Of a stretch of DNA of 64,000 nt, positions 17,311 through 58,398 are shown one piece after another (the stretch's first letter is position 1; the number at the start of each line of letters is the position of its first letter). Origin of the DNA: a candidate division WWE3 bacterium UBA1379 (GTDB taxonomy: Bacteria > Patescibacteriota > WWE3 > UBA101185 > UBA10185); NCBI GenBank assembly GCA_002305475.1, contig DBRB01000003.1, positions 111,844 to 175,843 of the forward strand. Reading direction: 5' to 3'. The position numbers and the translations under genes were made by a program. The notes under the pieces were generated by a model. It saw nothing but the letters and a program-made list of their open reading frames with translations. It was not told where the DNA came from and searched no databases.

Positions 17311-20300
17311 TGTATACTACCAATAATATGGGTGATAAAGAAAATCGGCAAGTCCCGGCGATTAACATCAGAGAGGTTGTAACTTTAATAATATTTTCTT
17401 TAATATTTTTATTTGTTTATAGATTTGATTATTTTTTCAGCGGAAAAATTGTTAAGGGAGGAGATCCAGAAGGGTTTTTCTATCCCTCTGCCTATTATCT
17501 TTATCAGCAATTAATTTCAGGAAAGTTTCCTTTTTGGACAGAACGGATATTTTTAGGTTTCCCTGCTTTCGCAATGTCCGAATTTGCTTATCTTAATCCC
17601 TTACGTATTATCGGTGTTTTGGTTTTTGGTCCTTTTGCAGTTTTTAAATTTGAACATATACTTTTTTATCTATTGGGTGTCATCGGAATATACGGAATAT
17701 TAAAAAAAACAGGTGTCAACATTTTGGGAATATTCGTCAGTATCATTACCTACTACTTTTCTTTTTTTCACATATACCGCACTATACATTTTAATTTTCT
17801 TCTCACCACATATCTATTGCCTATTAACATATTCTTAATATGGTCATTTATAACTTCGAATCGCCTAAGGTATTTATTAATTAATGCACTATTGGTATCA
17901 ATTACTATATATTATGGAAACTACAATGCAGTGGCATTATGTCTGATTCCTCAGATATTGTTGTTTGCTGTATATATAACCAAAGTTAAAATTCTTGAAC
18001 TGGTTAAAGGTTTAATGGTGATGTTGTTTTTTATTTCCATGTTTTCTATGCCTGCAATTATGTCAACATATTCTTTGTATTCTCAGAGCACACGGGGATC
18101 AGGAAATTTAAATTTTGTGGATGGATCAATAGCCCCCATACTATCATTATCTGTAGTTTATCCGTTTCTGTTAGGATACGGTGAAAATTTTATCGGTCAG
18201 ACGATAAATAATAATTATTATGAGCATGAAATCTACTTTTATTTCGGAATAGTGTCGGTATTATTAGCAATAATAGGTTATGTGTTTCAAGAGAGAAACA
18301 GTCGGGTTAGATTATTTCTATCTCTGAATATAGCAATATTTTTTATCTTTGGTTTTTTGGAATACTTGCCGTTTAAAACCCTGTTGAATGTCTTTCCGGT
18401 AAATCTTTTCAGATATTATGTCAGAACGTCCTTTTTAGGGTTATTATCTGTATCGATTTTTTCCGCAATTGGACTGCATATTTTAATCACTAATACAGAC
18501 TTTAAGCTGACAAAAACACGAATAATTCGAATACTTGTCTTATGCATTATTCCTTTCTATTATCTACTCTTGGATCTGATTAACCCCGGTCTAATTTATT
18601 CTAAGCAGATACTTGCTTTTATTATTAGAGGAGGTGCATTATATGAAAAAATTTGGTTCACCATTTTAGTTTCCTCTATTATTATTTTTGTGTTTTTCCT
18701 GAAACAAAAGAAATTTAGAAAAATATATACCGGTGTAATTATTTTTCTTGTTATTGCAGATTTGTATTTTTTTACCGGTATCGTTGGAAATGAGTTGTTA
18801 ATAGAAAAATATATACCGGATGCCCCTGAGTTAGGAAATACCAGGGTACTTTATACAAATCCCGAAATCATAGGTAATATGCCATTGTATTGGAATAATT
18901 GGAGTGTTTATGGCACATCCACCACTTTTGAATCTGGTTTGCAAAAAGAACTCTACAAATCTCATGGTTTAAAAAGTATAAGAAGATTTGATGATTCATT
19001 TCGCATGGATCAATTGCCAGCGTATTCCGAGAACCTGACCAAGCTAGGAATAGAAAAGGTAATCGTGGATGATAATACTGTTTTAGATTTAAACAATGAA
19101 AATAATGTTTTTGACAAAAGTATATATGGACTAACTGGAAACGTTATTGAAGCTGAAGAGGGTCATATTAAATATGAGATAGATAGTGATAAACGCCAGG
19201 AGATAACAACAAAAATAAAGAACTTTACCGGATGGAGAGTGTTTATAAACAATATAGAACGAAAAGTTACTTCTACTAAGGATGATCTGTTTATAAAGTT
19301 TTATCTGGACATGGGTAAAAATATAGTAGAAATGCAATACTTTCCCCTACCCTTATATAGAGGTTTACTTATCTCATTCTGTTTATTACTAGTTTATTTG
19401 TATTTTAGGTTAGTAAGACTGGATAAAATAAAAAAATTTATTCTATTTATTTCCATAGTACTATCTCTTGCTGTTTTTCTTTATAAATCCGATTACAAAT
19501 CAGTATTTACTGATGAGGTGCTGTATTTAGAATCAGGAAGAGAGTATCTGTCGGGTAATTTTGAAAACAATCTTCAGCACCCGCTTATTGGAAAATATAT
19601 TGCAGGGATATCCGATTTCACCAGATCAAGAGATTTATCAATATTAAGACTGCCGTTTGTTTTGTTATCCTTTGGCACAGCTATAGTGACTTTTATGATT
19701 ATAAGTCCTGTATATGGCTTTTATTTTGGCATATTAGGGATGCTTCTATACACCACAATGCCATTTACATATATCTCGGGGAGAATGATTCTTTTTGAAT
19801 CCCCTATGCATTTCTTCTGGTCATTGTTTCATCTGTATTTTCTGAAATACCTGAAAAACAGAAATTTGAAAACAGCACTAGTTGCAGGATTTTTTATCGG
19901 GCTGAGTATGGGAACAAAGTATACTTCTATTATTTTATATCCGTTTTCTTTACTAATAGTATTAATGGTATGTGGTAAGAAGATCAATATAAGACAATTA
20001 CTCACTATGTATATATCATCTGCGTTTGTATTCGGTATTACTTGGCTTCATATGGTAATAAAGTTAGGTATGCCATCATTGATTATCGCTGCCAAGGAAG
20101 CTAAGAATATATTTTTCGGAAGAAATGAGGAAGGAAAAATCCATGTTGTTAACGGTAAGTTATATGAGAAGTCTCCTTTTTGGTTCTATTTTTATTATAT
20201 ATACCATCAGTATAATCCTGTTCAAATGATAGTATCAGGGTTATCAGTATTGGCTGCTCTGTTCAGAAGAAAATATTTTGAGAATTACTGGTTGATATTT

Positions 20301-20858
20301 CTTCTATTTACGTTCGTATTTCATCAACTATTATCTTTGAAAAATGATCGTTATATCTCCTCACTTGAATTACCTTTGACAATTCTGATAGTGTCATTGT
20401 TTTATTATTTATACACCAGACTGAATAATTATAAATGGGTGGTGCTTATCCTAGTCTTGTCTCTTTTTATCTGGCGTACATTTGATTTGTTACAACTTAA
20501 ACCAGATAAATATAATGAATTACGAAATTACTTATCACAACAGACAAATGATTTTACTGACGGGCAAAGGTCATATATTTACGGCTCAATCAGGAGCGGG
20601 AGATGGACATTCGCAGATCTTCCCGATACAGTAGTCACCAGAAAAGACTTTTTAATAAAATGTGATTTTCCAAACTTCAACTACATAGTTTTTGATCAGG
20701 AAGAGTTGCTTAAATCAGATAAGAATGAATTGATGGATTTTGTTCAATTGAATAAAGTTAGGTTTAATTACACAGAGATTGGAAATTTTGATATTTACGA
20801 AAAGATAGAGGGGGAATCACCGGAAGTTGTAGATAAGGTTTTTTGTAAAGTTATTTAG
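17298..20858 (+). CDS. 1186-aa fusion protein: an N-terminal YfhO-like GT-C module joined to a C-terminal PMT/GT39-like GT-C module
   Basis: The N-terminal half carries FFYPSAYYLYQQLISGKFPFWTERIFLGFPAFAMSEFAYLNPLRII. This resembles the YfhO family pattern as recalled from memory, not checked against a model (lksGelPfWs..lglG......y...sPf). The C-terminal half carries DEVLYLESGREYLSGNFENNLQHPLIGKYIAG, which matches PMT-family DE...HPPLgK. The true start may be the Met at 17328, because 17298 overlaps the divergent neighbour. Confidence 0.6.
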   Translation: MSFSLYTTNNMGDKENRQVPAINIREVVTLIIFSLIFLFVYRFDYFFSGKIVKGGDPEGFFYPSAYYLYQQLISGKFPFWTERIFLGFPAFAMSEFAYLNPLRIIGVLVFGPFAVFKFEHILFYLLGVIGIYGILKKTGVNILGIFVSIITYYFSFFHIYRTIHFNFLLTTYLLPINIFLIWSFITSNRLRYLLINALLVSITIYYGNYNAVALCLIPQILLFAVYITKVKILELVKGLMVMLFFISMFSMPAIMSTYSLYSQSTRGSGNLNFVDGSIAPILSLSVVYPFLLGYGENFIGQTINNNYYEHEIYFYFGIVSVLLAIIGYVFQERNSRVRLFLSLNIAIFFIFGFLEYLPFKTLLNVFPVNLFRYYVRTSFLGLLSVSIFSAIGLHILITNTDFKLTKTRIIRILVLCIIPFYYLLLDLINPGLIYSKQILAFIIRGGALYEKIWFTILVSSIIIFVFFLKQKKFRKIYTGVIIFLVIADLYFFTGIVGNELLIEKYIPDAPELGNTRVLYTNPEIIGNMPLYWNNWSVYGTSTTFESGLQKELYKSHGLKSIRRFDDSFRMDQLPAYSENLTKLGIEKVIVDDNTVLDLNNENNVFDKSIYGLTGNVIEAEEGHIKYEIDSDKRQEITTKIKNFTGWRVFINNIERKVTSTKDDLFIKFYLDMGKNIVEMQYFPLPLYRGLLISFCLLLVYLYFRLVRLDKIKKFILFISIVLSLAVFLYKSDYKSVFTDEVLYLESGREYLSGNFENNLQHPLIGKYIAGISDFTRSRDLSILRLPFVLLSFGTAIVTFMIISPVYGFYFGILGMLLYTTMPFTYISGRMILFESPMHFFWSLFHLYFLKYLKNRNLKTALVAGFFIGLSMGTKYTSIILYPFSLLIVLMVCGKKINIRQLLTMYISSAFVFGITWLHMVIKLGMPSLIIAAKEAKNIFFGRNEEGKIHVVNGKLYEKSPFWFYFYYIYHQYNPVQMIVSGLSVLAALFRRKYFENYWLIFLLFTFVFHQLLSLKNDRYISSLELPLTILIVSLFYYLYTRLNNYKWVVLILVLSLFIWRTFDLLQLKPDKYNELRNYLSQQTNDFTDGQRSYIYGSIRSGRWTFADLPDTVVTRKDFLIKCDFPNFNYIVFDQEELLKSDKNELMDFVQLNKVRFNYTEIGNFDIYEKIEGESPEVVDKVFCKVI

Positions 20859-23869: not shown

Positions 23870-25426
23870 CTATTTTTTCTTATATATGGTTACATCCGAC
23901 AACGGGATTAGATTAGGCTTTGGAAGTTCAAATACTTTTTCTAACTGATACTCACCTGAATAAACCACAGTATATTCGAACTCATCCCATCTACTGACAT
24001 AAAACGGGTATGCTTTACGAACTTCTTTTCTCTTAAAGTTTTCCATCGGTCTGGATGACAGAATTATATAATCATAACCGATGGGATATTCCGGCATGAA
24101 AAATTGAGCGGACTCGGAAGTATATACCTGATATCGGATAACTCTTGCACCGGGTAGTTTATTCATCGGATCCAGCCCTTCTTCTGTATAGATCAGTTTA
24201 TTTGCAGAAGTCGGTACATTATCCCTCATCCAAAGATATGCTTCCGATTTTGGTGTGTGTCTTTGAAATTGAAAAAGAAGCAATGTTGGGAAGTAAAGAT
24301 AAGTAATCAAAGTCATTATTCCTCCCGTAATAGCTGCAGCTTTTAAATATCCGTTATTTTCTTTTAGTAAATCCCAGATTCTGATAAATCCATAAGAAGC
24401 ATACACCATTACAATTGGAATAATCGGTAGTAGCCAACGGTCTACTCTTCTGGACTGTATGGAGTAAAACAGAAGATAGAAAATTATGTGCCCTATTAAA
24501 AAGATGTGAATGGGAAATATTTCATTATTCTTTTCCTCTTTTATTTTGATGTAAGTTCCGTAAATAGATGAAATCAAAATAGGTATGGTAGATATAAATC
24601 CAAGGGCAAAAATATATTTGAATGGGTTTGAATCTACCGAATCAAAAACCATACCCGCTTCTTTAAAAAGCATCTCATAAATTCTAAAAACAAAATTATT
24701 GGCAAATATAAGGGCAAACGGATTGGTGATAACAAAAACTCCGTATATGAGAAAAAGAAAACCAAACATACCCCTGGGATCTTTTCTTTTTACATAGAGA
24801 TAAATGTATAAAGGTAATGTTAGTAAAGCCGTAATTTTTGTACCAACAGCCAGTCCGACAAGAAGACCATTAAACCAGGTATATCTAGATTTTTGAGGAT
24901 TTTCATAGTACAAGAGTGCAGAAACAAATGAGAGTGATAATAAAATAGTAAGTATTATATCTGCATTAATATAGTGAGCATGCACGATTAGTTTCCAGTT
25001 AAGAGTAGTAAGAATGAAAGATATAAAGGCAACCTTTTTATTTTTAGTGAGTATCCATGCTATAAGAGATGTAACAGGCATTATTGATAGTGAAAGAATT
25101 GAATTAATTACACGCATAAAGACATAAAGCGTGGTTTTATCAAACGATATATTAAAAAGATTCAAACCTTTACTAAAAAGCATTACTGTAATGGTGAAAA
25201 AGTATGAGGGAAAAGAACCGTATACATAAGAGATGGGTATCAGTTTGTAGTAGTCCTTTTTTTCAACAATACTTCTGATTTCATAAGTATATTTTATGGC
25301 CAGTTCTGCAATTTCCGGTTCATCAGCATAAAAACTATGAGGAAGACCAAATTCTATATGCCACAACCTAAAAAATATTCCGAGGAGAGATATTAATAAT
25401 ATGATTAAGAGGATGCTTTTCCTCAT
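23870..25426 (-). CDS. GT-C-like membrane glycosyltransferase; paralog of 13573..15108
   Basis: The motif FYADEPEIAELAIKY follows TM1. The 518-aa protein has more than 10 TMs. Confidence 0.5.
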   Translation of the reverse strand: MRKSILLIILLISLLGIFFRLWHIEFGLPHSFYADEPEIAELAIKYTYEIRSIVEKKDYYKLIPISYVYGSFPSYFFTITVMLFSKGLNLFNISFDKTTLYVFMRVINSILSLSIMPVTSLIAWILTKNKKVAFISFILTTLNWKLIVHAHYINADIILTILLSLSFVSALLYYENPQKSRYTWFNGLLVGLAVGTKITALLTLPLYIYLYVKRKDPRGMFGFLFLIYGVFVITNPFALIFANNFVFRIYEMLFKEAGMVFDSVDSNPFKYIFALGFISTIPILISSIYGTYIKIKEEKNNEIFPIHIFLIGHIIFYLLFYSIQSRRVDRWLLPIIPIVMVYASYGFIRIWDLLKENNGYLKAAAITGGIMTLITYLYFPTLLLFQFQRHTPKSEAYLWMRDNVPTSANKLIYTEEGLDPMNKLPGARVIRYQVYTSESAQFFMPEYPIGYDYIILSSRPMENFKRKEVRKAYPFYVSRWDEFEYTVVYSGEYQLEKVFELPKPNLIPLSDVTIYKKK

Positions 25427-25979: not shown

Positions 25980-27413
25980 ATGACTAGAAGAACACAGATA
26001 GGATTTATTGTGCTGCTTCTTCTCTTTCTAGCTCTTAGAATACCATATTTGGGGTGGGATTTATCAAATTCCGATGCAGCTAGATGGCATCGAAGATCCG
26101 AACGCTTCTTAACAGCAGTCAAGCAAATGTCCTTTGGTGATACATACCAGCATTATCAGCCGGGAGTTACCTTGATGTGGCTGGGTGCGGTAATTAAACA
26201 GGTCACACATACGTATTCATTAACTGAAAATGCTGATTACTATCCAATAATACACGGTTATATAAAGACAGCCTTAGTTATTATTCTCTTTATTATATTA
26301 ATTATTCAATCACTATTAATCCGTAAACTTTTCGGAAATGAGACGTCGTTATTCTATATAGGTCTAATGGCAGTAGAACCGTACTTAATAGGAATAGACC
26401 GGTGGATGCATCTTACTTCATTAGAAACGTATCTGGCTTTCACAGCATTTCTCCTTATTCTGTACTGGAGAAAAAACAGTAAAACATGGTATCTAGTTCT
26501 ATCCTCTGTCTTTTTATCTTTAGCCTTTTTGTCAAAACTGACTTCTCTTTCGGTATTACCTCTCATCTTTCTTGTGATCTATTTTAGGGAAAGAAAAATT
26601 AATGGAAAATTTATACAGCAAGGTCTTTTATTTTTAGCAGGATTTTTTGTGACATCGATATTATTGTTCCCAGCATTATGGGTGCAGCTAATTGAAGTAC
26701 TGATGAAACTGTTTTCTGCAATTTCCGGAGCTGTAGGAGATGATATCAGAGGTCAATATTTCACTGGTTGGTTCTCACTTGTTTATTATGTGGTTATTCT
26801 GGCATTCAAATTATCACCAATTACTTTATCCTTGCTGTTGTTTGCATTGTTAATAAGAAAACATCTTTGGAAAAACTATCAATGGATTTATATCTACTTC
26901 CTATTCTCTCTGCTTGTCCTGACGGTATCAGAGAAAAAAATTGATCGATACAGCATCTTTCTCTTCCCTTCTCTGATTCTGCTTTCTGCAGCAGCTATGT
27001 CACTGCTAAATAAGTATCGATACATATTGTATGCTGGTATCTTTCTTTATACGGTGTGTGTAGTATATTTCTTCTATCCCGTTTATTCGGCATACTACTC
27101 CCCTGCTTTTGGTGGTACACAACAGGCAATAAAAGTTGGAGTATATGAAAATAGCGGAGAATATTTTTCCGATGCTGCTTTCTACTTAAATACTTTAGGA
27201 AGGGACAACTATCTGTATGTTCCGAATAATTATGAGTCTATCTCATATTTCTATAAAGGAAAAATGCAAAGAGAATACAATGATCAGACAACTCATATGG
27301 TAACTTCCCTGGATTTTGACAGACCACTGGCAGAAAACAGACTATGCCCACAACTTGTCAAGTCTTTTGGGTCAAGGGATATGGAAGTTGTGTTTGTCTG
27401 GAAGTGTCGGTAA
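25980..27413 (+). CDS. GT-C glycosyltransferase, ArnT/PMT_2-like
   Basis: The motif GWDLSNSDAARWHRRSERFLTAV...QHYQPGVTLMWLGA aligns with the ArnT DEARY...KPPLLYWL pattern. The 477-aa protein has more than 10 TMs. Confidence 0.55.
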   Translation: MTRRTQIGFIVLLLLFLALRIPYLGWDLSNSDAARWHRRSERFLTAVKQMSFGDTYQHYQPGVTLMWLGAVIKQVTHTYSLTENADYYPIIHGYIKTALVIILFIILIIQSLLIRKLFGNETSLFYIGLMAVEPYLIGIDRWMHLTSLETYLAFTAFLLILYWRKNSKTWYLVLSSVFLSLAFLSKLTSLSVLPLIFLVIYFRERKINGKFIQQGLLFLAGFFVTSILLFPALWVQLIEVLMKLFSAISGAVGDDIRGQYFTGWFSLVYYVVILAFKLSPITLSLLLFALLIRKHLWKNYQWIYIYFLFSLLVLTVSEKKIDRYSIFLFPSLILLSAAAMSLLNKYRYILYAGIFLYTVCVVYFFYPVYSAYYSPAFGGTQQAIKVGVYENSGEYFSDAAFYLNTLGRDNYLYVPNNYESISYFYKGKMQREYNDQTTHMVTSLDFDRPLAENRLCPQLVKSFGSRDMEVVFVWKCR

Positions 27414-33709: not shown

Positions 33710-34966
33710 ATGATTAATACCCTTTCGAATAAAAAGGTAATACTAATAATGAGCTTTTTGTCCCTGCTTTTAATCTCTTTTGGTGTTTTTATCATTCTCA
33801 GGGATAAATATCTTGCGGACAAAATCGGTTCCACCGTAAAACAGATGCCTGATACGATTCAGGAGAACCTGGATAAAAGCGTTTTTACCGAGCGATACCC
33901 TTATGCTACTTTGGAAAATACCTGGATAGCATATAAAGAAAATGACATACAAAATGACGGAAGAACTGTAGATAAGTCTGCAAATTTGCTTACCACATCC
34001 GAAGGGCAGTCGTATTCATTATTAAGAGCAGTATGGGTTGATGATAAAGCAACATTTGACGAAGTATTAACCTGGACTAAAAATAATTTGCAAAAAAGAC
34101 CCAATGATAATCTATTATCCTGGAAATGGGGTCAGAGAAGTGATGGCTCCTGGGGTGTCCTGGAAGAAGATGGCGGTTTAAACACGGCCAGTGATGCTGA
34201 TTTGGATATTGCACTGGCATTAATCTTAGCCAGTGAGAGATGGAATGATGACTACTATATGAGTGAAGCACGAAAAATTCTCACGGATGTTTGGATGGTG
34301 GAGGTGATAGAGATCCAGGGTAGACCTTATCTGACTGCCGGGAATTGGGCTAAGCTTGAAGAGAACCCTGCCATTAATCCCTCATATTTTAATCTTGCAG
34401 GCTACCCTCTTTTTGCTGGAGTTGACCCTGTTCATGACTGGATGGCATTAAAAGATACATCTTATGAAATATTAAACTCATCCACAGATATGTTACCTCC
34501 TGATTGGATACGCATTAACAGGAATACCGGTGAGCTTATTCCTGATGCGGAAGTAAATGGAAACAGTGAAAAATTTTCCGATGATGCAGTTAGAATTCCT
34601 TGGAGAGTAGGTCTGGATTGGGAATGGCATAAAGATCCAAGGGCCGAGCAGTATATGAAGAAACTGGATGCCATTAATGAACTATGGAGTCAGCACCGAG
34701 CAATCTTTCGTGAATACAAAACAGACGGAACTCCCTTATCAAATAATGAAACACTGAGTACATATGGTGCGGTACTCCCCTATTTTGTTGTTCGTAACCC
34801 ACAAGCAGCTTCAGAAATTTTCAGAAATAAACTGGCTAAAAACTACAATGTGGATCAGCTGGATTTTTCCGGTGATGCAAATTATTACTCAAAAAACTGG
34901 GCTTGGTTTGGTATGGCATTTTATCAGGACTTTTTAAAAAATTACTATGAGGAGGATACTAATTGA
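33710..34966 (+). CDS. glycoside hydrolase family 8 endo-beta-1,4-glucanase (BcsZ-like), N-terminal TM/signal anchor
   Basis: The sequence ASDADLDIALALILASERW is a perfect match to the GH8 active-site signature A-[ST]-D-[AG]-D-x2-[IM]-A-x-[SA]-[LIVM]-[LIVMG]-x-A-x3-[FW]. The motif TTSEGQSYSLLRA is also present. Confidence 0.8.
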   Translation: MINTLSNKKVILIMSFLSLLLISFGVFIILRDKYLADKIGSTVKQMPDTIQENLDKSVFTERYPYATLENTWIAYKENDIQNDGRTVDKSANLLTTSEGQSYSLLRAVWVDDKATFDEVLTWTKNNLQKRPNDNLLSWKWGQRSDGSWGVLEEDGGLNTASDADLDIALALILASERWNDDYYMSEARKILTDVWMVEVIEIQGRPYLTAGNWAKLEENPAINPSYFNLAGYPLFAGVDPVHDWMALKDTSYEILNSSTDMLPPDWIRINRNTGELIPDAEVNGNSEKFSDDAVRIPWRVGLDWEWHKDPRAEQYMKKLDAINELWSQHRAIFREYKTDGTPLSNNETLSTYGAVLPYFVVRNPQAASEIFRNKLAKNYNVDQLDFSGDANYYSKNWAWFGMAFYQDFLKNYYEEDTN

Positions 34967-36564
34967 TGACAAACACAGAGCCGATCAAATTAAACAATAG
35001 AGGAAAGATCGGAACATTTACCCTGTCCGTAATCAGCATATTCACAATCGGATATTTTACATGGTGGCTGAACCTTAATCATGCAGGGCATCCGGTATTA
35101 TATGCCCTGCTTTTTGTTGGTGAAGTATTTCACGTCTGGCAGGCTCTCGGATATATTTTTACCGTCTGGTCCCAAAAGGAAGTGGTTTCACCAAAGATTA
35201 CAAAGTATTACCCCGTTGATATATTTATAACGGTGTGTGGAGAACCTGCTGAGATAGTTGAAAAGACAATTCAGGGAGCATTATCCATCGATTATCCGAA
35301 TTTTAAAGTATATATATTAAATGACGGAAAAGGAGCGGGTAAACATAACTGGAGAGAAATTGATGAATTGGCATTAAGATACGGAGTTATCCCGATCACA
35401 AGAGAGCGAAATGGAGGTTTTAAAGCCGGTAATCTGAATAATGCCCTCCGACAAACAAAAGGAGAATTTTTTGCTGTATTTGATGCCGATCAGATACCCG
35501 AGAAGAATTTCCTCACAAAGACCATCGGATTTTTTAAAGATCCACTGATGGCATTGGTACAGACTCCTCAGTATTATGCTAATAAAGATGAGAATTCTCT
35601 TACCAAAGCTGCCTGGGAACAGCAAGAGCTATTTTTCGGACCGATTTGTGTGGGGAAAAACAGATACAATGCTACATTATGGTGTGGTACAAATGCGGTA
35701 GTGAGAAAAAATGCCATCTATTCCATAGGCGGTGTGCCGGAACATAATATTGCCGAAGATTTTTTGGCCAGTCTTTTTCTTCATGAAAAAGGTTGGAAGA
35801 GCATCTATGTTCCAGAAATACTTGCCAAGGGTCTGGCTCCACACAATCTGAGTGACTATGTTAATCAGCAGTTTAGATGGGCTAGAGGTTCTTTGGAAGT
35901 GATATTTAAATACAATCCCCTTTTTCGAAAAGGCTTATCATGGGCTCAGAAAATACAGTATCTCTATTCATCCGGTTATTATCTTAACGGATTGATTGTC
36001 ATTATTGATGCAGTAATTCCTCTTGCGGCATTGACATTTAATGTGCTTCCTGTGAATGCTTCCACCAGTGATTTTATGATTTACTTTTTCCCGTTTATTT
36101 TCTCAACAATTTATCTTCTGATGATGTCTACCAGAAATCAGATTACATTTAATGCTATACAGCTGTCTATGAGTTCATTCTTTGTTTTTTTTATTGCCAC
36201 TTTGTCTACGGCTTTTGGAATAAAAGCAGCATTTAAAGTCACTAATAAATCCAAAGAAACCGGTAATTTCTTAAATCTGGTAATTCCCCATGCTTTATAT
36301 ACGATAGCGGCCATAATTTCAATTGTGGTAGCGGTGATTAGGGATGGAATAGTACCATCAGTAGTAACAAATGCGGCGTGGGCAGTTTTTAATATCACAT
36401 TCTTTTCGGCGTTTTTTAAAGTGGCATATCCCTGGGATGAATTATGGAGTAGGGTAACATCTCTGTTTCATTCCGAAAAAGAGGATGTGGTATCTCCTAG
36501 TACAAAGCTGGCATATACATTTGTCGAAGCAGCAAGGGATCCAGAATTTGATTTTGAGGAATAA
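34963..36564 (+). CDS. processive GT2 beta-glycan synthase, cellulose-synthase (BcsA)-like, lacking a PilZ domain
   Basis: It has the motifs DGKG, FDADQIP (DxD), NIAEDF (TED-like) and QQFRWARG (QxxRW), with 2 N-terminal and at least 4 C-terminal TMs. At 533 aa it has no C-terminal PilZ (no RxxxR/DxSxxG). Its start overlaps the GH8 stop (ATGA). Confidence 0.8.
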   Translation: MMTNTEPIKLNNRGKIGTFTLSVISIFTIGYFTWWLNLNHAGHPVLYALLFVGEVFHVWQALGYIFTVWSQKEVVSPKITKYYPVDIFITVCGEPAEIVEKTIQGALSIDYPNFKVYILNDGKGAGKHNWREIDELALRYGVIPITRERNGGFKAGNLNNALRQTKGEFFAVFDADQIPEKNFLTKTIGFFKDPLMALVQTPQYYANKDENSLTKAAWEQQELFFGPICVGKNRYNATLWCGTNAVVRKNAIYSIGGVPEHNIAEDFLASLFLHEKGWKSIYVPEILAKGLAPHNLSDYVNQQFRWARGSLEVIFKYNPLFRKGLSWAQKIQYLYSSGYYLNGLIVIIDAVIPLAALTFNVLPVNASTSDFMIYFFPFIFSTIYLLMMSTRNQITFNAIQLSMSSFFVFFIATLSTAFGIKAAFKVTNKSKETGNFLNLVIPHALYTIAAIISIVVAVIRDGIVPSVVTNAAWAVFNITFFSAFFKVAYPWDELWSRVTSLFHSEKEDVVSPSTKLAYTFVEAARDPEFDFEE

Positions 36565-36567
36565 TAT

Positions 36568-38148
36568 ATGCACACAACAAAACTGACCACTATCAATAAA
36601 TACTCCTCATATTTTTTCAATGCCGTAGTATTATCTGCTATTGCAATAGGCGCCGCTCTTCGTTTATACGGGTTGGGACAAGAAAGTATGAGACTTGATG
36701 AAGCACAGAGTGTGTGGCAGGCTTCTCATTCCATTAATTTTATTAAAAGTTATATGGTTCAGAATATTCATCTTCCTTTGCACAATGTTTTATTACACTG
36801 GTGGATGAAGTTTGTAGGGACGGAGGAAGTATCAGTTAGATTGATGTCAGCCATACCTGGCATATTATCCCTACCTGCATTATATCTTTTAGCTTGGGAA
36901 ATATTTCAGGATAAAAAGAAGGCATTAATTACTCTTCTGATAGCCGCTATTTCACCTTTCTGGATCTGGTACAGCAGGGAAATCCGAATGTATACCTTAC
37001 TGACATTGGTCAGTTCTTTGTCTTATTACTTTTATCTTAGGATTCTAAAAGAAAACAGACCTGTTCTTTTTACTTTCTTTATTGCTGTTAATGTTCTTGG
37101 CATCTATACACACTACTTTTTTAATTTTGTTTTATTGATTCAGGCTTTATTTTTTATAATCGCAAAAAGACAGATGTGGTTTAGGAAGGTTAAATATAAC
37201 GCAAAAGAGCTTTTTATAAGGTTTACTTTATCCGCTGCTGTTGTATATTTAGTGTTTCTACCTTGGGTATTGTATTTCATTGTAAACCATGCACAGGGAG
37301 GTAGTTTTGCACCGGAATTGGAAAAACCCAGCAGTTTTAACGTCGTTCTCAGCTTTTTTGAATTTGCTTTGGGATATCAGCCGGAAAATCTAACTGCGGC
37401 GATTATTGCCTTATGGCCTTTGAGTGTTTTGATCGGATTTATATTTCTGACAAAAAGAAAAAACCCACTAACACCTGGTGTCTATCTGGCATTTTTCGGA
37501 ACTGTTGTACCGGTGGTACTTGTATACCTGATAAGTATTTTTATCAGTCCGATCTATCTTACTCGATATCTGATACATACTACTCCTCTTTTTATGGTGG
37601 CAGTTGCTTGGTTATTAACTGAAATGCAAGGCTCAATACGACAGCTATCAATGGGTGTGTTTTTCGTAATAATAATGCTTGCTTTGTATAACCAGAAAAA
37701 AAATCCCGAAAATCCAGCTCGGGAGAACTATCGGGATGCTGTTGCCTATGTTAATAGTGTGGCTACGGATCGGGATGTCATTGTCGTCAGTCCTCCGTAT
37801 ACTCTGTATCCGGTTTACTACTATTATGATCTTCCAAATAAAGTTGTATCCATGCCTATTTGGGATAAAAGAGAGTTAAGTCTTCCTCCACTTACTCCTC
37901 AGAATCTGGAAACGGATTCAACATTAATTCAGGAGGGACACAGAAGAATATTTTTAATCACTACTTTAAATCTGGCCGGGGGGTATGATGTGGAAAGATA
38001 TCTGGATCTTAACTACACCCGTCTTGATAAAAAACAATTTTCCAAATTTGTCTGGGTAGAAACATATCAGGCTGAATATCCGGATTTGGCGGAAGAAACT
38101 AATACATCTGGAACAGAAGAGATTGTGTCTCAAATTAACGCGGAGTAG
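36568..38148 (+). CDS. GT-C glycosyltransferase, ArnT/PMT_2-like
   Basis: The motif LGQESMRLDEAQSVWQASH...LPLHNVLLHWWMKFVGTEEVSVRLMSAIPGILSLPALYLLAWEIF matches the PMT_2/ArnT pattern well. Confidence 0.65.
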   Translation: MHTTKLTTINKYSSYFFNAVVLSAIAIGAALRLYGLGQESMRLDEAQSVWQASHSINFIKSYMVQNIHLPLHNVLLHWWMKFVGTEEVSVRLMSAIPGILSLPALYLLAWEIFQDKKKALITLLIAAISPFWIWYSREIRMYTLLTLVSSLSYYFYLRILKENRPVLFTFFIAVNVLGIYTHYFFNFVLLIQALFFIIAKRQMWFRKVKYNAKELFIRFTLSAAVVYLVFLPWVLYFIVNHAQGGSFAPELEKPSSFNVVLSFFEFALGYQPENLTAAIIALWPLSVLIGFIFLTKRKNPLTPGVYLAFFGTVVPVVLVYLISIFISPIYLTRYLIHTTPLFMVAVAWLLTEMQGSIRQLSMGVFFVIIMLALYNQKKNPENPARENYRDAVAYVNSVATDRDVIVVSPPYTLYPVYYYYDLPNKVVSMPIWDKRELSLPPLTPQNLETDSTLIQEGHRRIFLITTLNLAGGYDVERYLDLNYTRLDKKQFSKFVWVETYQAEYPDLAEETNTSGTEEIVSQINAE

Positions 38149-38154: not shown

Positions 38155-39672
38155 ATGGATTTACATGACAAAATAAACGCGAGAAATAAAGAGATAATTC
38201 TTATTATTACCGCCCTGATAATATCTTTTCTGGCTCATGCTGTTAATATGTTCGGTTATCCGTATTATGAAAGTGACGAGGGAACATATATTTCTCAGGC
38301 ATGGTCAATCTTAAAGTTAAACCAGCTTGCGCCATATGAATATTGGTATGACCATCCTCCTTTTGGATGGCTTCTGATTGCATTATGGATGCTATTAACG
38401 GGTGGGATGTATGTTTTCGGATTATCAGTAAATTCCGGAAGGGTCTTAATGCTGGTGATGCATTTGTTTTCCTCCTTGCTTTTATATCTGATTACAAAAA
38501 AATTTACAAGATCGGCTTTTACTGGAACAGTCTCCGTATTGATATTTTCAGTTTCTCCTTTGGCTGTCTTTTTTCATCGCAGAGTACTTCTGGATAATAT
38601 TGCCGTATTCTGGCTCCTTTTATCTATTACGATAATTTTATACAGAAGATCTAATTTTGCTGTTTTATTAAGTGCAGCATCTTATGGTTTTTCTTTTCTT
38701 ACTAAAGAATCTATGCTAGTTTTTTCACCTGTGATGCTTTATCTGGTTTATGTAATATTTACTAGTAAAAAAAGAAAAACTGTACTGTGGTTTGTTATAG
38801 CGTCATTAATCATTCTAACCTATCCCCTGTTTGCGCTTTTTAGAGGACAGTTGTTTCCTAATGACACTGGAATAAGTCTGTGGCAGTCAGTTATGACTCA
38901 GGTAACCAGAAGGAATGCTGAGATAGCGGGAACTCAAATCAGTGCATTTTGGTTTACTTTCTCTGAATGGATTAAGGAGGATCCCGTACTCATTTATCTG
39001 GGGATTGGATCTATATTTTTAAATATTATGCTGGGACTTAAAAGCCTATACGCAAGAATTATCGCATTGTTTAGCGTGGTCTTTGTCACATTTTTGTATT
39101 TCAATAGTTTAGTATTGGAGTTTTATATTGTTCCTATTCTACCCTTTTTTGCATTAAATATTTCCTACTTTATGGAACGGTTGAAAAATGTATTTTACAA
39201 CCGCGTACCTGCGAAACTAAGAAAAATTTCATATCTACCGTATTTTGGGATTGTTGTATCACTTTTAGTGATGTTTTTTAGGTATTCAAACAGTTCAAAG
39301 GATTTCTATAACATATACAGAACCGATCAGACTACCGGTCAGAGACAGGCAATTTCGTGGATGGTCAAAAATATTCCACCGGGTTCCAAAACGATATCGG
39401 ACAGTTATGCATATGTGGATCTAAATGACGGGAATAAAAACAGAAGATTTGACTACTATTGGAAAGTTGATTTTGATCCTGATATCAAAGAGACGATTTA
39501 CGGTAATTCCTGGAATAATGTTGATTATATTGCAATGACTCCTCAGATGGAGCGCGATCTGGAAAACAATTCCGGATTTGCACTCACCTCGACCGCTCTA
39601 AAAAATTCCAAAGAAATCCAACGTTTCTTTTCAAACGGATGGGGTGTGAGAATATTCAAGGTTAATCAGTAA
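38155..39672 (+). CDS. GT-C glycosyltransferase, protein O-mannosyltransferase (PMT/GT39)-like
   Basis: The motif YYESDEGTYISQAWSI...YWYDHPPFGWLLIALWM matches the DE...HPPLgKlLiA hallmark. Confidence 0.7.
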   Translation: MDLHDKINARNKEIILIITALIISFLAHAVNMFGYPYYESDEGTYISQAWSILKLNQLAPYEYWYDHPPFGWLLIALWMLLTGGMYVFGLSVNSGRVLMLVMHLFSSLLLYLITKKFTRSAFTGTVSVLIFSVSPLAVFFHRRVLLDNIAVFWLLLSITIILYRRSNFAVLLSAASYGFSFLTKESMLVFSPVMLYLVYVIFTSKKRKTVLWFVIASLIILTYPLFALFRGQLFPNDTGISLWQSVMTQVTRRNAEIAGTQISAFWFTFSEWIKEDPVLIYLGIGSIFLNIMLGLKSLYARIIALFSVVFVTFLYFNSLVLEFYIVPILPFFALNISYFMERLKNVFYNRVPAKLRKISYLPYFGIVVSLLVMFFRYSNSSKDFYNIYRTDQTTGQRQAISWMVKNIPPGSKTISDSYAYVDLNDGNKNRRFDYYWKVDFDPDIKETIYGNSWNNVDYIAMTPQMERDLENNSGFALTSTALKNSKEIQRFFSNGWGVRIFKVNQ

Positions 39673-52028: not shown

Positions 52029-52934
52029 TTAAGATTTGGGTAAACTTAGGTTTCTCTTTTTTATTAATTCAGCAGCCTTTTTAACTTTTCCCATGACCAC
52101 CAGACTACAATAAGGGTTATTCGGATTGTTTTCATAAAAATTCATGTGATAATCTTCTGCCTGATAAAACACCATATAAGGTATAACTTGGGTTACTGCC
52201 ATTATTCCGGTATTTTTTAATACTTCTATATATCTCTTGGTTTTTTGTTCCTGTTCTATAGTTGTAAATAATATTATAGAACGGTATTGTTCTCCTACAT
52301 CATTACCTTGTCTGTTTAGGGTTGTCGGATCATGAATTTCAAAAAATATTTGAAGCAGATCATCAAAAGTCACTATAACGTTGTTAAATTCTATCCGTAC
52401 TACTTCCGCATGATGAGTGTTTCCTTCGGATACATCCTCATACGAAGGATTATCTTTTGATCCTCCGGAATAACCGGATATTACACTGATAACTCCCGGA
52501 ATTAGTTTAAAGACAGCTTCAGTGCACCAGAAACATCCCCCTCCGAAATATGCAACCTCAATATTTCCTTCATTAGATTTTGGTATAAATTTGATTGATA
52601 GTGAATTGACACAATGGCGGGTATCTTTTTCCGTCATTTTTTCCCCCTCAAATACATGTCCTAAATGACCCTTGCAGTTTGAACAAATTATTTCTGTTCT
52701 TATTCCGTCAGAGTCAGGTTTTCTTACCACGGATCCGGGAAAATGTTCATCAAAACTTGGCCATCCGCATCCGGAATTAAATTTGGCTTCAGCTGAAAAC
52801 AGCGGTTGGGAACATTGTCTGCAGTAAAACACCCCATCTTTAAACATTGAATCATATTCATTCGTAAATGGATTCTCGGTTTTCTTATTTATTATCACCT
52901 GTTTTTCTTCTTTAGTAAGCGGATTTTTAATCAT
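52029..52934 (-). CDS. msrBA: bifunctional peptide-methionine sulfoxide reductase with an N-terminal MsrB and a C-terminal MsrA
   Basis: The MsrB part has the Zn site CRQC...CSNC and RTEIICSNCKGHLGHVF. The MsrA part has the active site GGGCFWC. Confidence 0.9.
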   Translation of the reverse strand: MIKNPLTKEEKQVIINKKTENPFTNEYDSMFKDGVFYCRQCSQPLFSAEAKFNSGCGWPSFDEHFPGSVVRKPDSDGIRTEIICSNCKGHLGHVFEGEKMTEKDTRHCVNSLSIKFIPKSNEGNIEVAYFGGGCFWCTEAVFKLIPGVISVISGYSGGSKDNPSYEDVSEGNTHHAEVVRIEFNNVIVTFDDLLQIFFEIHDPTTLNRQGNDVGEQYRSIILFTTIEQEQKTKRYIEVLKNTGIMAVTQVIPYMVFYQAEDYHMNFYENNPNNPYCSLVVMGKVKKAAELIKKRNLSLPKS

Positions 52935-54067
52935 AAATTATTAGGATTAACCTTAATTAATTTGTCATCATTATCTCTTGCCTGTCCTCTGCCGTCTCTG
53001 TTGCTTGTAGTCAGATAAAATTGGTTGTTGGGTCCTATCTTCAGACCTCTTAATCTTCCGAATGTATTATCAAGATGAACCGTAAATTCACTGACATTGT
53101 TGTTTTGTATACGTGCTTCATAAAGAGCAGTACCACGTAACCCGGTAAAATAGATGGATCCGTTGAAATAGACGGTAGAACCGGGGGCCCATGTGTCGGA
53201 TGCCCCAGAATGGATTACGGGAGGAATCATTCCTTCGCGGGTCTGATCTCCGCGTATAATCGGCCATCCGTAATTACCTCCCTTAGTAATCAGATTTAAT
53301 TCGTCAAATCCTGACTGGCTGCCTGACGGACCGTGTTCCGTTTCCCAGAGATTACCATTTTCGTCCCAGGTAAGACCCTGTGGATTTCTATGCCCGTATG
53401 AATATATTGCATTATTAAAGGGATTATCTTCAGGAATACTGCCGTCATCAGCAATTCTTAGGATTTTTCCATTAAGGGATGAGAGATCTTGGGCAAGATT
53501 TTGACTACCAGCATCCCCTGTAGTGATGTATAAGTAACCATCAGGAGCGAACGCCATCTTCCCCCCATCATGATTTGATGCACCTGCGATTCCATCAAGT
53601 ATCACTTCCCTATCAGTCAACCTGTTATCAGTAAGAACATATCTTTCTACTCTGTTTTCCAATCCAGTTTCAGTTCTGACGGTTAAGTATAAATATATAT
53701 ATCTATTGTTTTCAAAATCTGGATGCAGAACCATTCCTAATAGTCCACCCTCTCCTATATGAGCAACGCCATCAATTCTTTGAGAAGTTCTGGTTTCCTG
53801 ATTAATCCTTATCACATTTCCTACTCTTTCGGTAATCAGAAGATCTCCATCAGAAAGAAACACTAATTCCCATGGGATATTCAGATTATCTGCAATTACA
53901 GTTATGGGTTCATTACTTTGTGTAGAGTCATTAGCAGGATTATTAAATACCGTATCTTGGGAAGATGATTGCAAACTATCTATATCTACAGTTTCATTTC
54001 TAATTAAATATAGGGTAATTCCAATAAGTAATGCAATAGGTAAAACTATTAATAATTTATTTCTCAT
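52931..54067 (-). CDS. PQQ-dependent sugar dehydrogenase (soluble glucose/sorbosone dehydrogenase-like), secreted
   Basis: A signal peptide is present. The motifs GLLGMVLHPDF and YSYGHRNPQGLTW match the paralog at 247..1209. Confidence 0.75.
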   Translation of the reverse strand: MRNKLLIVLPIALLIGITLYLIRNETVDIDSLQSSSQDTVFNNPANDSTQSNEPITVIADNLNIPWELVFLSDGDLLITERVGNVIRINQETRTSQRIDGVAHIGEGGLLGMVLHPDFENNRYIYLYLTVRTETGLENRVERYVLTDNRLTDREVILDGIAGASNHDGGKMAFAPDGYLYITTGDAGSQNLAQDLSSLNGKILRIADDGSIPEDNPFNNAIYSYGHRNPQGLTWDENGNLWETEHGPSGSQSGFDELNLITKGGNYGWPIIRGDQTREGMIPPVIHSGASDTWAPGSTVYFNGSIYFTGLRGTALYEARIQNNNVSEFTVHLDNTFGRLRGLKIGPNNQFYLTTSNRDGRGQARDNDDKLIKVNPNNL

Positions 54068-55310: not shown

Positions 55311-56024
55311 TTAATGACCCTTTGCCTTTAGTATACTTCTTACGGATTTCCATGCGGGATAATGTCGGTCAAGTAAATTATAGAATTTTTTGCTGTGATT
55401 TAGCTCTATCAGATGACAGAATTCATGGATAATCACGTAATCAATACACTTTGGGTCATATTTAATCAGATCTTTATTTATTTTAATAATACCCCGTGCA
55501 GAACACTGTCCCCATTTATTCTTCATGGAACAAATTGATATTTCAGGCACAGACAGGCTGTATTGATTAAACTCTGAAAATATAATAAAAGCTCTCTCAC
55601 TGATTATTTTTCTAGCCTGGTTATAATACCAGTTATATAATAGATGTCTGACCAAAAGCTCATTGTCCGTATTGATACAACTAACAATCAGATTACAGTC
55701 AAAAATTTCTACCAAAGCATTATCTGATTTAACCAATTGTAGTGTGTAGTCTTTGCCTAAATATGGGTGAATTTCTCCTTGTTTAAAGAGTTTGTTATTG
55801 CTTTGTTTTTTCTTAATATACTCAAGTTTATTTCTGATCCATCTTTCTTTTTCCTTAAGTATATTGAAAATAACCTCATCACTGATGTGGTTAGGTGAAG
55901 ATACAACTATTAGATTGATGTCTTTAACCGAAATTCCGATAGTATGTTTCCTCTTAGTTCTCTTGATTTTAATGGAAGCAGTTGTGTCGTTTCCAAGTTT
56001 TATAACGGATGTTTTGTCAGTCAT
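55311..56024 (-). CDS. DUF45/YgjP-like M48-family zinc metallohydrolase
   Basis: The HExxH motif sits in DYVIIHEFCHLIELNHSKKFYNLL, which matches the YgjP signature HElcHL...NHs..Fw. Confidence 0.7.
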   Translation of the reverse strand: MTDKTSVIKLGNDTTASIKIKRTKRKHTIGISVKDINLIVVSSPNHISDEVIFNILKEKERWIRNKLEYIKKKQSNNKLFKQGEIHPYLGKDYTLQLVKSDNALVEIFDCNLIVSCINTDNELLVRHLLYNWYYNQARKIISERAFIIFSEFNQYSLSVPEISICSMKNKWGQCSARGIIKINKDLIKYDPKCIDYVIIHEFCHLIELNHSKKFYNLLDRHYPAWKSVRSILKAKGH

Positions 56025-56433
56025 TACTCATTTTATGGTACAGGTTTTTTACTAATAACGGAGTCAGAAACATAGTAATAAGAAAAAGCAGCCAAATTCT
56101 ACCTTTAAATATGTTGTAATCGTTTAATAACCTTATCCAGGAAGCTCCGTCAATAATGTGACCGAACCCAAACTCAAATATTATAGTCATTAATACCCAC
56201 AATGTGCCTATTTTTATTAATGTAAGACTGCTTAAGTCTTTAACTGTGTTATTGAGAATTAAATAACATAATAAAAAGAATGCTACTGAACCGGTTAGTG
56301 TACTAATCTGATGGGCTGTCAGTTCCCCTACATAATGCTGATAGACTAAATTTCTGATAATTCCATTAAGTATTGCTATAGGTGTGAATAACAGCCAGAT
56401 AATCAATGCTTTTTTATAAACTGTATCGAGCAT
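56017..56433 (-). CDS. small membrane protein (4 TM, hypothetical)
   Basis: The 138-aa ORF has four hydrophobic helices. Its stop overlaps the start of the DUF45 gene. Confidence 0.4.
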   Translation of the reverse strand: MLDTVYKKALIIWLLFTPIAILNGIIRNLVYQHYVGELTAHQISTLTGSVAFFLLCYLILNNTVKDLSSLTLIKIGTLWVLMTIIFEFGFGHIIDGASWIRLLNDYNIFKGRIWLLFLITMFLTPLLVKNLYHKMSND

Positions 56434-56605: not shown

Positions 56606-56752
56606 ATGTGCTACGACGAATACTATAGCTACTACGCAAATCAGAAAAGGGAAGCTGCTAAAAAGGAATTAGAAAAGAAAGCAGAACAGAATAAGAAACA
56701 GGAAATCAAAGTAGATATTCCTGTACCGGCTGATTCAGAAGTAAGAAGTTAA
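56606..56752 (+). CDS. unannotated small ORF (48 aa, Lys/Glu-rich)
   Basis: A strong AGGAGG lies 8 nt upstream of the ATG. The translation is MCYDEYYSYYANQKREAAKKELEKKAEQNKKQEIKVDIPVPADSEVRS. It falls below the ORF-track length cutoff. Confidence 0.3.
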   Translation: MCYDEYYSYYANQKREAAKKELEKKAEQNKKQEIKVDIPVPADSEVRS

Positions 56753-56845
56753 AAATGAAAATAAAAACAAATAATAAGTAGATAAGGTCCTGAAAACAAA
56801 TATCGGGGCCTTTTCTACTATAAACTTAGTATTAAAATAGGTTGG

Positions 56846-58060
56846 TTAATATCTGAGGATTGCCGCGAGAGGAGAATCAAGCTGTTTACCGTTCTCAACA
56901 GAGTACACCATACCCCCATTTTTTAATGTATTTATAGCCGTATAGTTAGTTAATTCAGTAATGTTATTATTACTGCCATTATTAATCCGTTCGGCTTTCA
57001 ATAGTCCGTTTTCCATTTTTATATTTACTTTCAGTTCATCCTCCGGCCTGACCAAAAGTGTGTCTACCTGTCCGTAATAGGCTTTATTTAACACTTCTTG
57101 CGAATTTCTGGAAGATTTTTCGTACTCCAGTTTCTGTAGATTTTGGGATATTTCATCATTAATATCCTGCTGTTGGATTTCTTTCATAACTTCCCAAGCT
57201 CTTTTTCCAAGAAGATCAGGATGCAGACTGCGTTTATCAAGTCTCACATATTGATTCAGAATACCTTTAATTTTTGATAGTTTAGAAAATATTGAGTATG
57301 TTTTAATATCCGAAGCTATTAATAGTGGGGTATTTTGTGAAGATATTTTTTGGGATGCCGCGTTATCCACACTAGTGCAAAATCTAATAAGGTTGTCATT
57401 TTTTGCATCAATATATGCCCCGTGTCCGTGATAGATCATTGCACCTGATAAACCTGGTCCGGTTTTTGATGACGTTTTATTCTGGATTGACTTTTCAGGA
57501 TCATCAAATTCCATTATTTCATCCATATTAATAGGCATATCAGGAACATTAATTTCAAAAAGTTTTGCTTCCCTTCCCCTGTATAAAGATACCTGTTTTT
57601 GAGAGAGCAACAACAAATAGTAGTCATAATTGCGGGATAGGATATTAATTAAAGGTTTAATATAGAAAGCACAGTCTTGATGAATCTGATTACCCATTTC
57701 ATCGGATACTGTAAAAACACATTCCTGATTCTTCTCCATCATAATTACCAATGTATCTTGAACGTGTTTCCAGAATTGTTCATCATCAATAAGATGGGCG
57801 AGAAATTTTCTATGATAATCATCAACATCATTTGCGTAATTCTTCAGTTGAATTTTTGCTTCTTCATTCTGGTCCCATACCGGACTTGTCTGAAGATATA
57901 TTGTGGTTGAATCAATGTTGTTTTCGGAAAAATTTTTAGCATATTGAAAAATGAAATCTTTGATATCTGCAGAAGTACTGGTTAATTCCATATATAAAAT
58001 ATGCTCTTGTAATTTATGGGATATATTAAAAGAATGTTTGCGGTTTATCACAGCCCACAT
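56846..58060 (-). CDS. eRF1/Pelota-like (bacterial baeRF-type) release-factor-fold protein
   Basis: The C-terminus GGMVYSVENGKQLDSPLAAILRY matches the eRF1 domain-3 signature (GGIGGILRY). The central glycine-rich segment GPGLSGAMIYHGHGAY is compatible with an RNase-H-like domain 2. No GGQ is present. Confidence 0.45.
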   Translation of the reverse strand: MWAVINRKHSFNISHKLQEHILYMELTSTSADIKDFIFQYAKNFSENNIDSTTIYLQTSPVWDQNEEAKIQLKNYANDVDDYHRKFLAHLIDDEQFWKHVQDTLVIMMEKNQECVFTVSDEMGNQIHQDCAFYIKPLINILSRNYDYYLLLLSQKQVSLYRGREAKLFEINVPDMPINMDEIMEFDDPEKSIQNKTSSKTGPGLSGAMIYHGHGAYIDAKNDNLIRFCTSVDNAASQKISSQNTPLLIASDIKTYSIFSKLSKIKGILNQYVRLDKRSLHPDLLGKRAWEVMKEIQQQDINDEISQNLQKLEYEKSSRNSQEVLNKAYYGQVDTLLVRPEDELKVNIKMENGLLKAERINNGSNNNITELTNYTAINTLKNGGMVYSVENGKQLDSPLAAILRY

Positions 58061-58398
58061 AATTAGTTGATAAAATTAAATCTCTATGTATTTAGCCAGA
58101 TTGTTTTTCACATTGAGAATAATATTTATATTATTGAGTGCACTTTACTATCTATTTAATAGGTTATCTCCGTTCAATGAGTTGCCCAGTGATATTATTA
58201 TTCGCAGAGGTAATTATATCTTTTATTTTCCTATAGTATCAATATTACTTCTAAGTTTAATACTCAGCATTGTTATTAATCTTTTTATTAGAAAGTAATC
58301 ATAAGTAATAGGATTGTTAGAAAGTAAGGCAGTAGATTATTTTTTATGGTATAAATCATTCTGAGACTAAAGAATCCAGATACAGGAGGGAGAGAAAA

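Follow-up and report, generated by a model that had tools for sequence, protein, structure and literature searches.

Gene and encoded protein

A 64,000-nucleotide stretch of contig DBRB01000003.1 from the candidate division WWE3 bacterium UBA1379, hereafter the window, was analysed with regard to a gene on its minus strand at 56846..58060. The gene is an open reading frame (ORF) of 404 aa with the C-terminus SPLAAILRY, and it encodes a three-domain bacterial protein of the archaeo-eukaryotic release factor 1 (aeRF1) type that falls into family 7/3 of the bacterial group termed baeRF. It adds an unusually divergent protein from the candidate phyla radiation (CPR) to a known and recently characterised family, which includes the ribosome hibernation factor Balon of Psychrobacter urativorans, and does not amount to a new kind of system. 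An original prediction, made from the DNA sequence alone, had described an ORF of this length and C-terminus without a GGQ motif, all of which was borne out by the sequence. A search of the 404-aa ORF for the strings GGQ and NIKS found neither and, because both are absent, the protein is, judged by its sequence, not a canonical release factor. The glycine-rich central region that had also been proposed was present in part; 5 glycines occur across the 26 residues KTSSKTGPGLSGAMIYHGHGAYIDAK, which is a modest richness.

Homology to relatives begins at the second methionine of the ORF, M24 (ATG at 57991), in homologue and profile alignments alike. Between the ATG of M1 and the start at 58086 of a divergently oriented ORF for a DUF2905 protein there are only 25 nt. 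Because no homology precedes M24 and M1 lies this close to the DUF2905 start, the true product is probably a 381-aa protein starting at M24, and the stretch M1-Y23 would probably be 5' leader and not protein. The parts of the gene are listed below, where residue numbers are counted from M24 unless the 404-aa ORF is stated and conservation refers to 73 typical members of the subfamily, in which 147 alignment columns are at least 85% conserved.

56846..57991, minus strand: core coding sequence, M24 through the stop codon (381 aa plus stop), where homologue and profile alignments start; likely the true product
57992..58060, minus strand: in-frame 23-codon N-terminal extension, M1-Y23, covered by no homologue and near the DUF2905 start
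57632..57991, minus strand: N domain, residues 1-120, counterpart of the domain that binds the decoding centre in aeRF1 and Balon; the most divergent part
57116..57631, minus strand: M domain, RNase-H-like, residues ~121-292, with the Pfam baeRF matches and a predicted topology of three strands, loop and long helix
57491..57505, minus strand: DDPEK, start of the loop at the GGQ-loop position; D, P and E are 95-99% conserved and kept here
57419..57430, minus strand: HGHG, directly before the long M-domain helix; H188, G189 and G191 are 93-99% conserved and kept here
56849..57115, minus strand: C domain, eRF1 domain-3/Pelota-like, residues ~293-381, aligning to the Balon C domain and covered by the full-length Foldseek matches
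56987..57031, minus strand: beta-hairpin insertion of the C domain, strands 321-327 and 330-335 in the predicted secondary structure, aligning to Balon RRGYIQAAKVDEDAQTLTM
56849..56866, minus strand: C-terminal motif AAILRY; A376 is 95%, A377 90%, R380 100% and Y381 96% conserved

Family membership and relation to Balon

The highest-scoring Pfam match was baeRF_family7 (PF18849) at 104.1 bits against a gathering cutoff of 27.2 (E = 9.6e-30), followed by baeRF_family3 at 87.9 bits against 31.5 (E = 1.3e-24) and baeRF_family6 at 77.1 bits against 27.5, with family 11 also above threshold. In the numbering of the 404-aa ORF, the family 7 match spans residues 147-293 and the family 3 match residues 147-330. 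NCBIfam returned a single match, NF052287 or 'AOC03_06830 family ribosome hibernation factor', over residues 96-404 (E = 9.8e-21). A hidden Markov model (HMM) of the subfamily that was built independently, i.e. without the window protein and without its CPR relative, scored the window protein at 192 bits (E = 6e-61) and Balon at 124 bits. With this value and a Pfam E of 1e-29, a 404-codon ORF in DNA of 33% GC is far beyond chance.

Profiles built from 8 and from 75 homologous sequences matched Balon (8rd8_B) over residues 2-369 at E = 4.8e-38 and 2.9e-39, respectively. Membership of the Balon family was judged by full-length profile homology to Balon over more than 300 aa and all three domains, which is what both profiles gave, and the comparison was run from the profile to Balon, opposite in direction to the iterative HMMER search of Helena-Bueno et al. 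2024. The match of the same profiles to Msmeg1130, the Balon of M. smegmatis, was marginal (E = 0.003 to 0.018). Full-length comparison of Balon with typical members of the subfamily gives identities of 25-27%, at E about 1e-30.

Balon itself scores best on Pfam family 3 (105 bits) and marginally on family 7 (28 bits), whereas the window protein, with its best score on family 7, and its relatives score highly on both. Because Balon fits mainly family 3 while the group of the window protein fits families 3 and 7, this group is, on the profile scores, the sister group of Balon. The subfamily has many members; when 1.84 billion cluster representatives were searched exhaustively with an HMM, 11,087 were retrieved at E <= 1e-3, of which 5,133 reached E <= 1e-30, with named members in Chloroflexota, Cyanobacteria, Bacillota, Planctomycetota, Desulfobacterota and others.

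The core of the original prediction, a bacterial homologue of archaeo-eukaryotic release factors with a C-terminus resembling domain 3 of eRF1 and Pelota, is in agreement with the Pfam, profile and Foldseek results, and the profile comparison it had proposed led to Balon from end to end. The family can no longer be called uncharacterised, in that Balon has been studied structurally (PMC10901736) and has an NCBIfam model, which the window protein matches weakly.

Predicted structure and comparison with known factors

The structure was modelled with AlphaFold2. A first run on an 8-sequence alignment gave a predicted local distance difference test score (pLDDT) of 57 and was discarded for a run on a 75-sequence alignment, which reached a pLDDT of 73.8 and a predicted template modelling score of 0.62. 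The top Foldseek matches of this model were the Balon structures 8rdv_B and 8rdw_B (E about 6e-18, template modelling (TM) score 0.67-0.70, ~390 aligned columns), with Msmeg1130 and Rv2629 near the top of the ranking. Archaeal and eukaryotic RF1 came next at E = 1e-13 to 1e-8 (aRF1 4af1, E = 7.6e-13; several eRF1 entries, E = 1e-12 to 1e-8) and then Pelota at E = 1e-7 to 1e-5 (3wxm and 3oby, E about 1e-7). The matches to aRF1, eRF1 and Pelota extend over more than 330 aligned columns and all three domains, which assigns the eRF1 fold to the predicted model. As judged from the model and from structure titles, the best-matching structure for this protein family is Balon of P. urativorans. The original prediction had allowed for a coincidental LRY ending in a protein without an eRF1 or Pelota fold. 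This is not what was found; the Foldseek comparison with eRF1 and Pelota that it had suggested gave matches across all three domains, and the closing A, A, R and Y are conserved in the subfamily at the frequencies listed above.

Balon (P. urativorans AOC03_06830; 8RD8, 8RDV and 8RDW) has the same three-domain aeRF1-like architecture in 369 aa, compared to 381 aa in the window protein. Both lack NIKS and GGQ and both end in ..RY, the ending being ..ALVTRY in Balon and ..AA(I/V)(L/F)RY in the subfamily, where it is among the best conserved features. They differ in the central loop, which is longer in the window protein and carries DDPEK...HGHG; an alignment check of P. urativorans Balon found neither motif, and its loop is shorter. 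According to the model, DDPEK...(F)HGHG sits between the third strand and the long helix of the M domain, at the position of the GGQ loop, and the loop residues 171-193 are predicted to be long, with low pLDDT and a sequence unlike that of Balon. The GGQ of release factors is missing, with DDPEK...HGHG standing in its place.

Within the family-7 subgroup this loop is nearly invariant, reading DDPEK...FHGHG, in contrast to most baeRF families, for which Burroughs & Aravind described poor loop conservation (PMC6514570). There is a rather small probability that it makes a specific contact at the peptidyl-transferase centre (PTC), or performs a chemistry, for which Psychrobacter Balon offers no parallel.

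The baeRF_family7/baeRF-1 clade (Burroughs & Aravind 2019, PMC6514570) has the same three domains together with a beta-hairpin insert in the Pelota-like domain, and relative to it the window protein is an extreme outlier in which ~63% of the family-conserved positions have been lost. Msmeg1130 and Rv2629 (8V9J, 8V9K and 8V9L) have the same fold (Foldseek E = 1e-13 to 1e-11, TM score about 0.6) and end in ..AAVLR(W); they belong to another baeRF subgroup with marginal profile similarity to the homologues of the window protein. A Synechocystis homologue of Balon is ~30% identical to the Psychrobacter protein (10.64898/2026.07.03.736309), and the subfamily of the window protein is abundant in cyanobacteria; the window protein is much more divergent than this homologue. 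The factors aeRF1/eRF1 and Pelota/Dom34 likewise fold into these three domains (Foldseek E = 1e-13 to 1e-5) and have an ILRY-type C-terminus, but they are 10-15% identical to the window protein in the Foldseek alignments, with TM scores of 0.2-0.5 that lie below those of Balon.

Association of the subfamily with HPF

The genomic context of the subfamily was evaluated in 80 related loci in which ORFs were called, the Balon-like gene being located in 77. In 9 of the 80 loci (L016, L026, L035, L053, L057, L058, L063, L078 and L080) a gene for HPF/RaiA (Ribosomal_S30AE) lay within +-6 kb of the Balon-like gene and on its strand, in 6 of them as the immediate neighbour, and HPF/RaiA was the sole recurrent translation-related neighbour. 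By our estimate this is far above chance for a single-copy gene. An association with HPF has been reported for baeRF families (PMC6514570), and that of Balon with HPF/RaiA was reported as a tendency and not a requirement (PMC10901736).

Proposed function

The function we favour for the window protein, and consider fairly probable, is that of a non-catalytic ribosome hibernation factor of the Balon type that binds the ribosomal A site. A Balon-like mechanism is preferred because of the homology, the fold and the retention of motifs. Balon occupies the A site whether or not mRNA is present, with its N domain at the decoding centre, where an HP motif of this domain contacts A1492 and A1913, while its loop wraps A2602 beside the PTC without triggering peptide release; it also traps the tail of bL27 and recruits EF-Tu(GDP), which is contacted by the beta-hairpin of the C domain (PMC10901736). 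Binding to the A site and inhibition of translation have been described for Balon and for its homologues in mycobacteria alike (PMC10901736). The Synechocystis homologue binds hibernating 70S ribosomes that carry LrtA, through decoding-centre and PTC residues that differ from those of Psychrobacter Balon, and no EF-Tu was seen (10.64898/2026.07.03.736309).

By analogy, we infer ribosome binding, a role in hibernation, an involvement of EF-Tu and regulation for the window protein as follows. Upon starvation or stress the protein would enter the ribosomal A site with the N domain at the decoding centre, the M-domain loop with DDPEK...HGHG, in the place of the GGQ of eRF1, directed towards the PTC, and the C domain directed towards the factor-binding site. 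Translation would then be blocked without release of the peptide and idle ribosomes would be protected. The hairpin predicted in the C domain appears equivalent to the EF-Tu-contacting hairpin of Balon, which makes a role in EF-Tu binding putative.

A number of observations weigh against this function. The window protein and Balon are not detectably similar in a pairwise comparison (blastp E = 0.23), and phmmer with the single sequence against the PDB gave chance matches only, for example to P22 tailspike, which is why homologue profiles were needed for the link to known structures. The NF052287 score of 74.6 bits is far under the equivalog cutoff of 330 bits; the window protein is, by this measure, a relative and not an equivalog of Psychrobacter Balon. 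Only 54 of the 147 conserved positions (37%) are kept, and in the N domain 13 of 47 (28%). Near-invariant residues that have been lost include H36S, P46K, R48Q, R135S, H172K, R183G and W321K/G322V. The decoding-loop segment aligns as T-S-P-V-W-D here, T-H-R-A-G-x in the subfamily and T-H-R-E-H-P in Balon, such that the H-P of Balon, which we tentatively equate with the published HP motif, is absent at the aligned position. Balon is often encoded beside RaiA, yet a search of the 64-kb window found no HPF/RaiA gene, and the stress or hibernation neighbourhood of the Balon family (RaiA/HPF, Hsp20, Osm) does not occur at the window locus. The neighbours are DUF2905, DUF167, TspO, YgjP, GSDH and MsrAB, with no obvious stress genes among them.

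By comparison, each of the 73 typical subfamily members keeps at least 108 of the 147 positions (at least 73%; median 139), and a protein from a Candidatus Saccharibacteria metagenome-assembled genome keeps 72. The latter is the closest relative among 5.8 billion proteins, at 34% identity, all others being at or below 29%; identities to sampled subfamily members span 22-34%. The residues that are retained in the window protein are DDPE, HGHG, R203, F73-W74, K112-P113-L114, L127/S130 and the C-terminal AA..RY, and the C domain retains 15 of its 27 conserved positions. A scan of metagenomes for further CPR members gave 249 pattern matches with no relative among them, and a scan with a DNA pattern for IYHGHGAY gave 5 matches, all due to chance.

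Because the N domain is so divergent, an altered contact with the decoding centre or a partial loss of function is possible. Taken further, the protein would be a relic or neofunctionalised, in that drift of the N domain has ended Balon-like binding of the decoding centre and the function is either fading or has shifted to a new binding mode on the CPR ribosome. We regard this as unlikely. It would account for the 37% of conserved positions kept (28% in the N domain), against at least 73% in typical members; for the independent HMM, whose alignment begins no earlier than residue 88 of the 404-aa ORF and so leaves the first ~64 residues counted from M24 unaligned; and for the existence of one relative above 30% identity in 5.8 billion proteins, to which the two metagenome scans added none. 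However, the reading frame is unbroken in a genome rich in AT, the motifs of the loop and of the C-terminus have been preserved and the model retains the full three-domain fold. Furthermore, the window and Saccharibacteria proteins have many derived states in common (VW at 38-39, K46, Y187, Y193, G183 and D228). Because of these common residues the two proteins are suggested to form a small CPR-specific clade, which in turn suggests a maintained lineage and not random decay.

An extension of the hibernation function would be that this clade is a Patescibacteria-specific Balon lineage in which the domain for the decoding centre would have been reshaped in adaptation to the atypical CPR ribosome, possibly for A-site hibernation free of HPF. 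The reshaping would consist in the loss of the THR...DPIR loop residues of the subfamily and of several invariant arginines. The extension is rather improbable as it stands.

A further alternative is ribosome rescue or release, where the protein would act in the A site of stalled ribosomes through Pelota-like splitting without catalysis or through chain release driven by DDPEK...HGHG. Because the HGHG loop is conserved, such activity is given a small probability and no more. The fold also matches Pelota and eRF1, conservation across the subfamily is strong in the loop that takes the place of GGQ (93-99% for its D, P, E, H, G and G), Q170 near the loop is 86% conserved and kept here, and rescue is one possible role that Burroughs & Aravind proposed for baeRF proteins (PMC6514570). 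Set against this are the lack of a GGQ or GxuQ-type motif and of an adjoining RtcB, ABCE1-like or Hbs1-like partner. The nearest relatives are moreover Balon proteins, in which the PTC is kept inert and no peptide is released (PMC10901736), and the HPF genes found next to members of the subfamily speak for hibernation.

Neighbouring genes and transcription unit

The original prediction had placed the gene beside co-directional genes for a four-transmembrane (4-TM) protein and a YgjP/DUF45 hydrolase with overlapping ends, and had raised ribosome-targeting conflict systems as a possible context. The features flanking the gene are as follows.

58213..58242, minus strand: candidate sigma-70-like promoter match, TTGATA-18-TATAAT, 11/12, inside the DUF2905 ORF
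58086..58298, plus strand: DUF2905 protein, 70 aa with two transmembrane segments, Pfam E = 4.4e-16, divergent from the baeRF gene
56777..56819, no strand assigned: hairpin between the baeRF gene and the 48-aa ORF; on the plus strand -25 kcal/mol, z = -5.9, followed by UUUUCU; on the minus strand -15.7, z = -2.7, followed by a U-rich tract
56606..56752, plus strand: 48-aa Lys/Glu-rich ORF (MCYDEYYSYYANQKREAAKKELEKK...) with the near-perfect Shine-Dalgarno sequence AGGAGGTGA at 10-nt spacing
56017..56433, minus strand: 138-aa hydrophobic 4-TM ORF without a Pfam match
55311..56024, minus strand: 237-aa YgjP-like HExxH protein, Pfam PF01863, E = 2.3e-51

The two co-directional genes are present as described, and the overlap, of 8 nt, is between these two, indicating translational coupling. 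The pair (55311..56433, minus strand) may form a membrane-associated unit of its own. From the stop codon of the baeRF gene to the 4-TM start there are 412 nt, and this spacer contains both the hairpin and the 48-aa ORF. The latter was correctly noted for its strong Shine-Dalgarno sequence 10 nt before the ATG, but it lies on the plus strand and is convergent with the baeRF gene, not co-directional. It is probably a real small gene, although it has no Pfam match and no homologue in the 83 related loci. The hairpin, going by its predicted stability on both strands, is probably a bidirectional intrinsic terminator at which the baeRF transcription unit ends on its 3' side, and the baeRF gene appears to be transcribed alone, apart from the 4-TM and YgjP genes. 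The region upstream of the baeRF gene held 6 promoter-like sites compared to 12.2 in shuffled sequences, i.e. fewer than in shuffles, so that the candidate at 58213..58242 is weakly supported. The DUF2905 ORF at 58086..58298 is missing from the public gene calls for the contig.

The related loci gave no indication of a conserved neighbourhood around these genes, which the original prediction had proposed to look for. By Pfam, the genes directly upstream and downstream were heterogeneous and did not include YgjP, and the closest relative has a Peptidase_M50 gene on one side and a spermine-synthase/M28 gene on the other. When the YgjP, 4-TM, 48-aa, 149-aa and DUF2905 proteins of the window were searched against the loci with phmmer and tblastn, the one result was a weak YgjP-like match ~4 kb off in a Nostoc locus. 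An operon with YgjP and 4-TM was therefore rejected on account of the convergent ORF and terminator in the spacer, the different context in the nearest relative and the 80 loci without homologues of the neighbours; the proposed tie to the 48-aa ORF is not supported. PADLOC gave no matches for the baeRF, YgjP, 4-TM and 149-aa proteins, no defence genes lie alongside, and the defence-system interpretation was dropped.

That the protein belongs to a conflict system, or to a module with its 4-TM and YgjP/DUF45 neighbours, is consequently largely refuted and highly improbable, even though the genes share a strand and are 412 nt apart and some families of release-factor-like proteins have been linked to ribosome-targeting conflicts (PMC6514570), given the intervening convergent ORF and strong hairpin terminator, the Peptidase_M50 and spermine synthase/M28 flanks of the closest relative, the 80 loci without 4-TM or 48-aa ORF homologues and with a single weak and distant YgjP-like match, and the empty PADLOC result.

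Other features of the window

No second baeRF paralogue was found within the 64-kb window, and an Rfam search of it returned three tRNAs only, none of them near the baeRF gene. The RarA protein of the window is 70% identical to a protein of candidate division WWE3 and 66% identical to one of Saccharimonadales, and its other named matches likewise belong to Patescibacteria. Glycosyltransferases of the PMT_2 and GT2 types predominate in the window. At least five paralogous PMT/PMT_2-type membrane glycosyltransferases of ~500 aa are encoded at 12123..13580, 15823..17310, 23870..25426, 36568..38148 and 38155..39672, and ORFs of similar size without a Pfam match are found at 9184..10725, 10784..12118, 13573..15108 and 25980..27413. 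For genes of envelope glycosylation this density is unusual. At 33710..36564 on the plus strand, a GH8 endoglucanase-like gene comes first and overlaps a cellulose-synthase-like GT2 gene after it, in a BcsZ/BcsA-like pair. The largest ORF of the window, at 17298..20858 on the plus strand, encodes 1186 aa. Two glucose/sorbosone dehydrogenase (GSDH) paralogues and an MsrB-MsrA fusion are encoded on the minus strand at 247..1209, 52931..54067 and 52029..52934; one GSDH gene overlaps the fusion by 4 nt, which places functions in the repair of oxidative damage ~3 kb from the Balon-like gene.

Implications

It was not until 2024 that Balon-type factors were recognised, and in most genomes they are still labelled hypothetical. 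The window protein itself carries no name in any annotation source. The annotation of the window is corrected here to a Balon-like baeRF7 protein with a probable start at M24, and a spurious operon hypothesis is removed.

To our knowledge there are no prior studies of hibernation factors in ultra-small host-dependent bacteria, for which dormancy between hosts is plausible. As a Patescibacteria example, the window protein would extend ribosome hibernation by aeRF1 mimics to these organisms. It also draws attention to the conserved family-7 DDPEK...HGHG loop, which is not explained by the structures of Psychrobacter Balon. If a CPR lineage of Balon does exist, it would represent a mode of A-site hibernation that ultra-small episymbionts have of their own.

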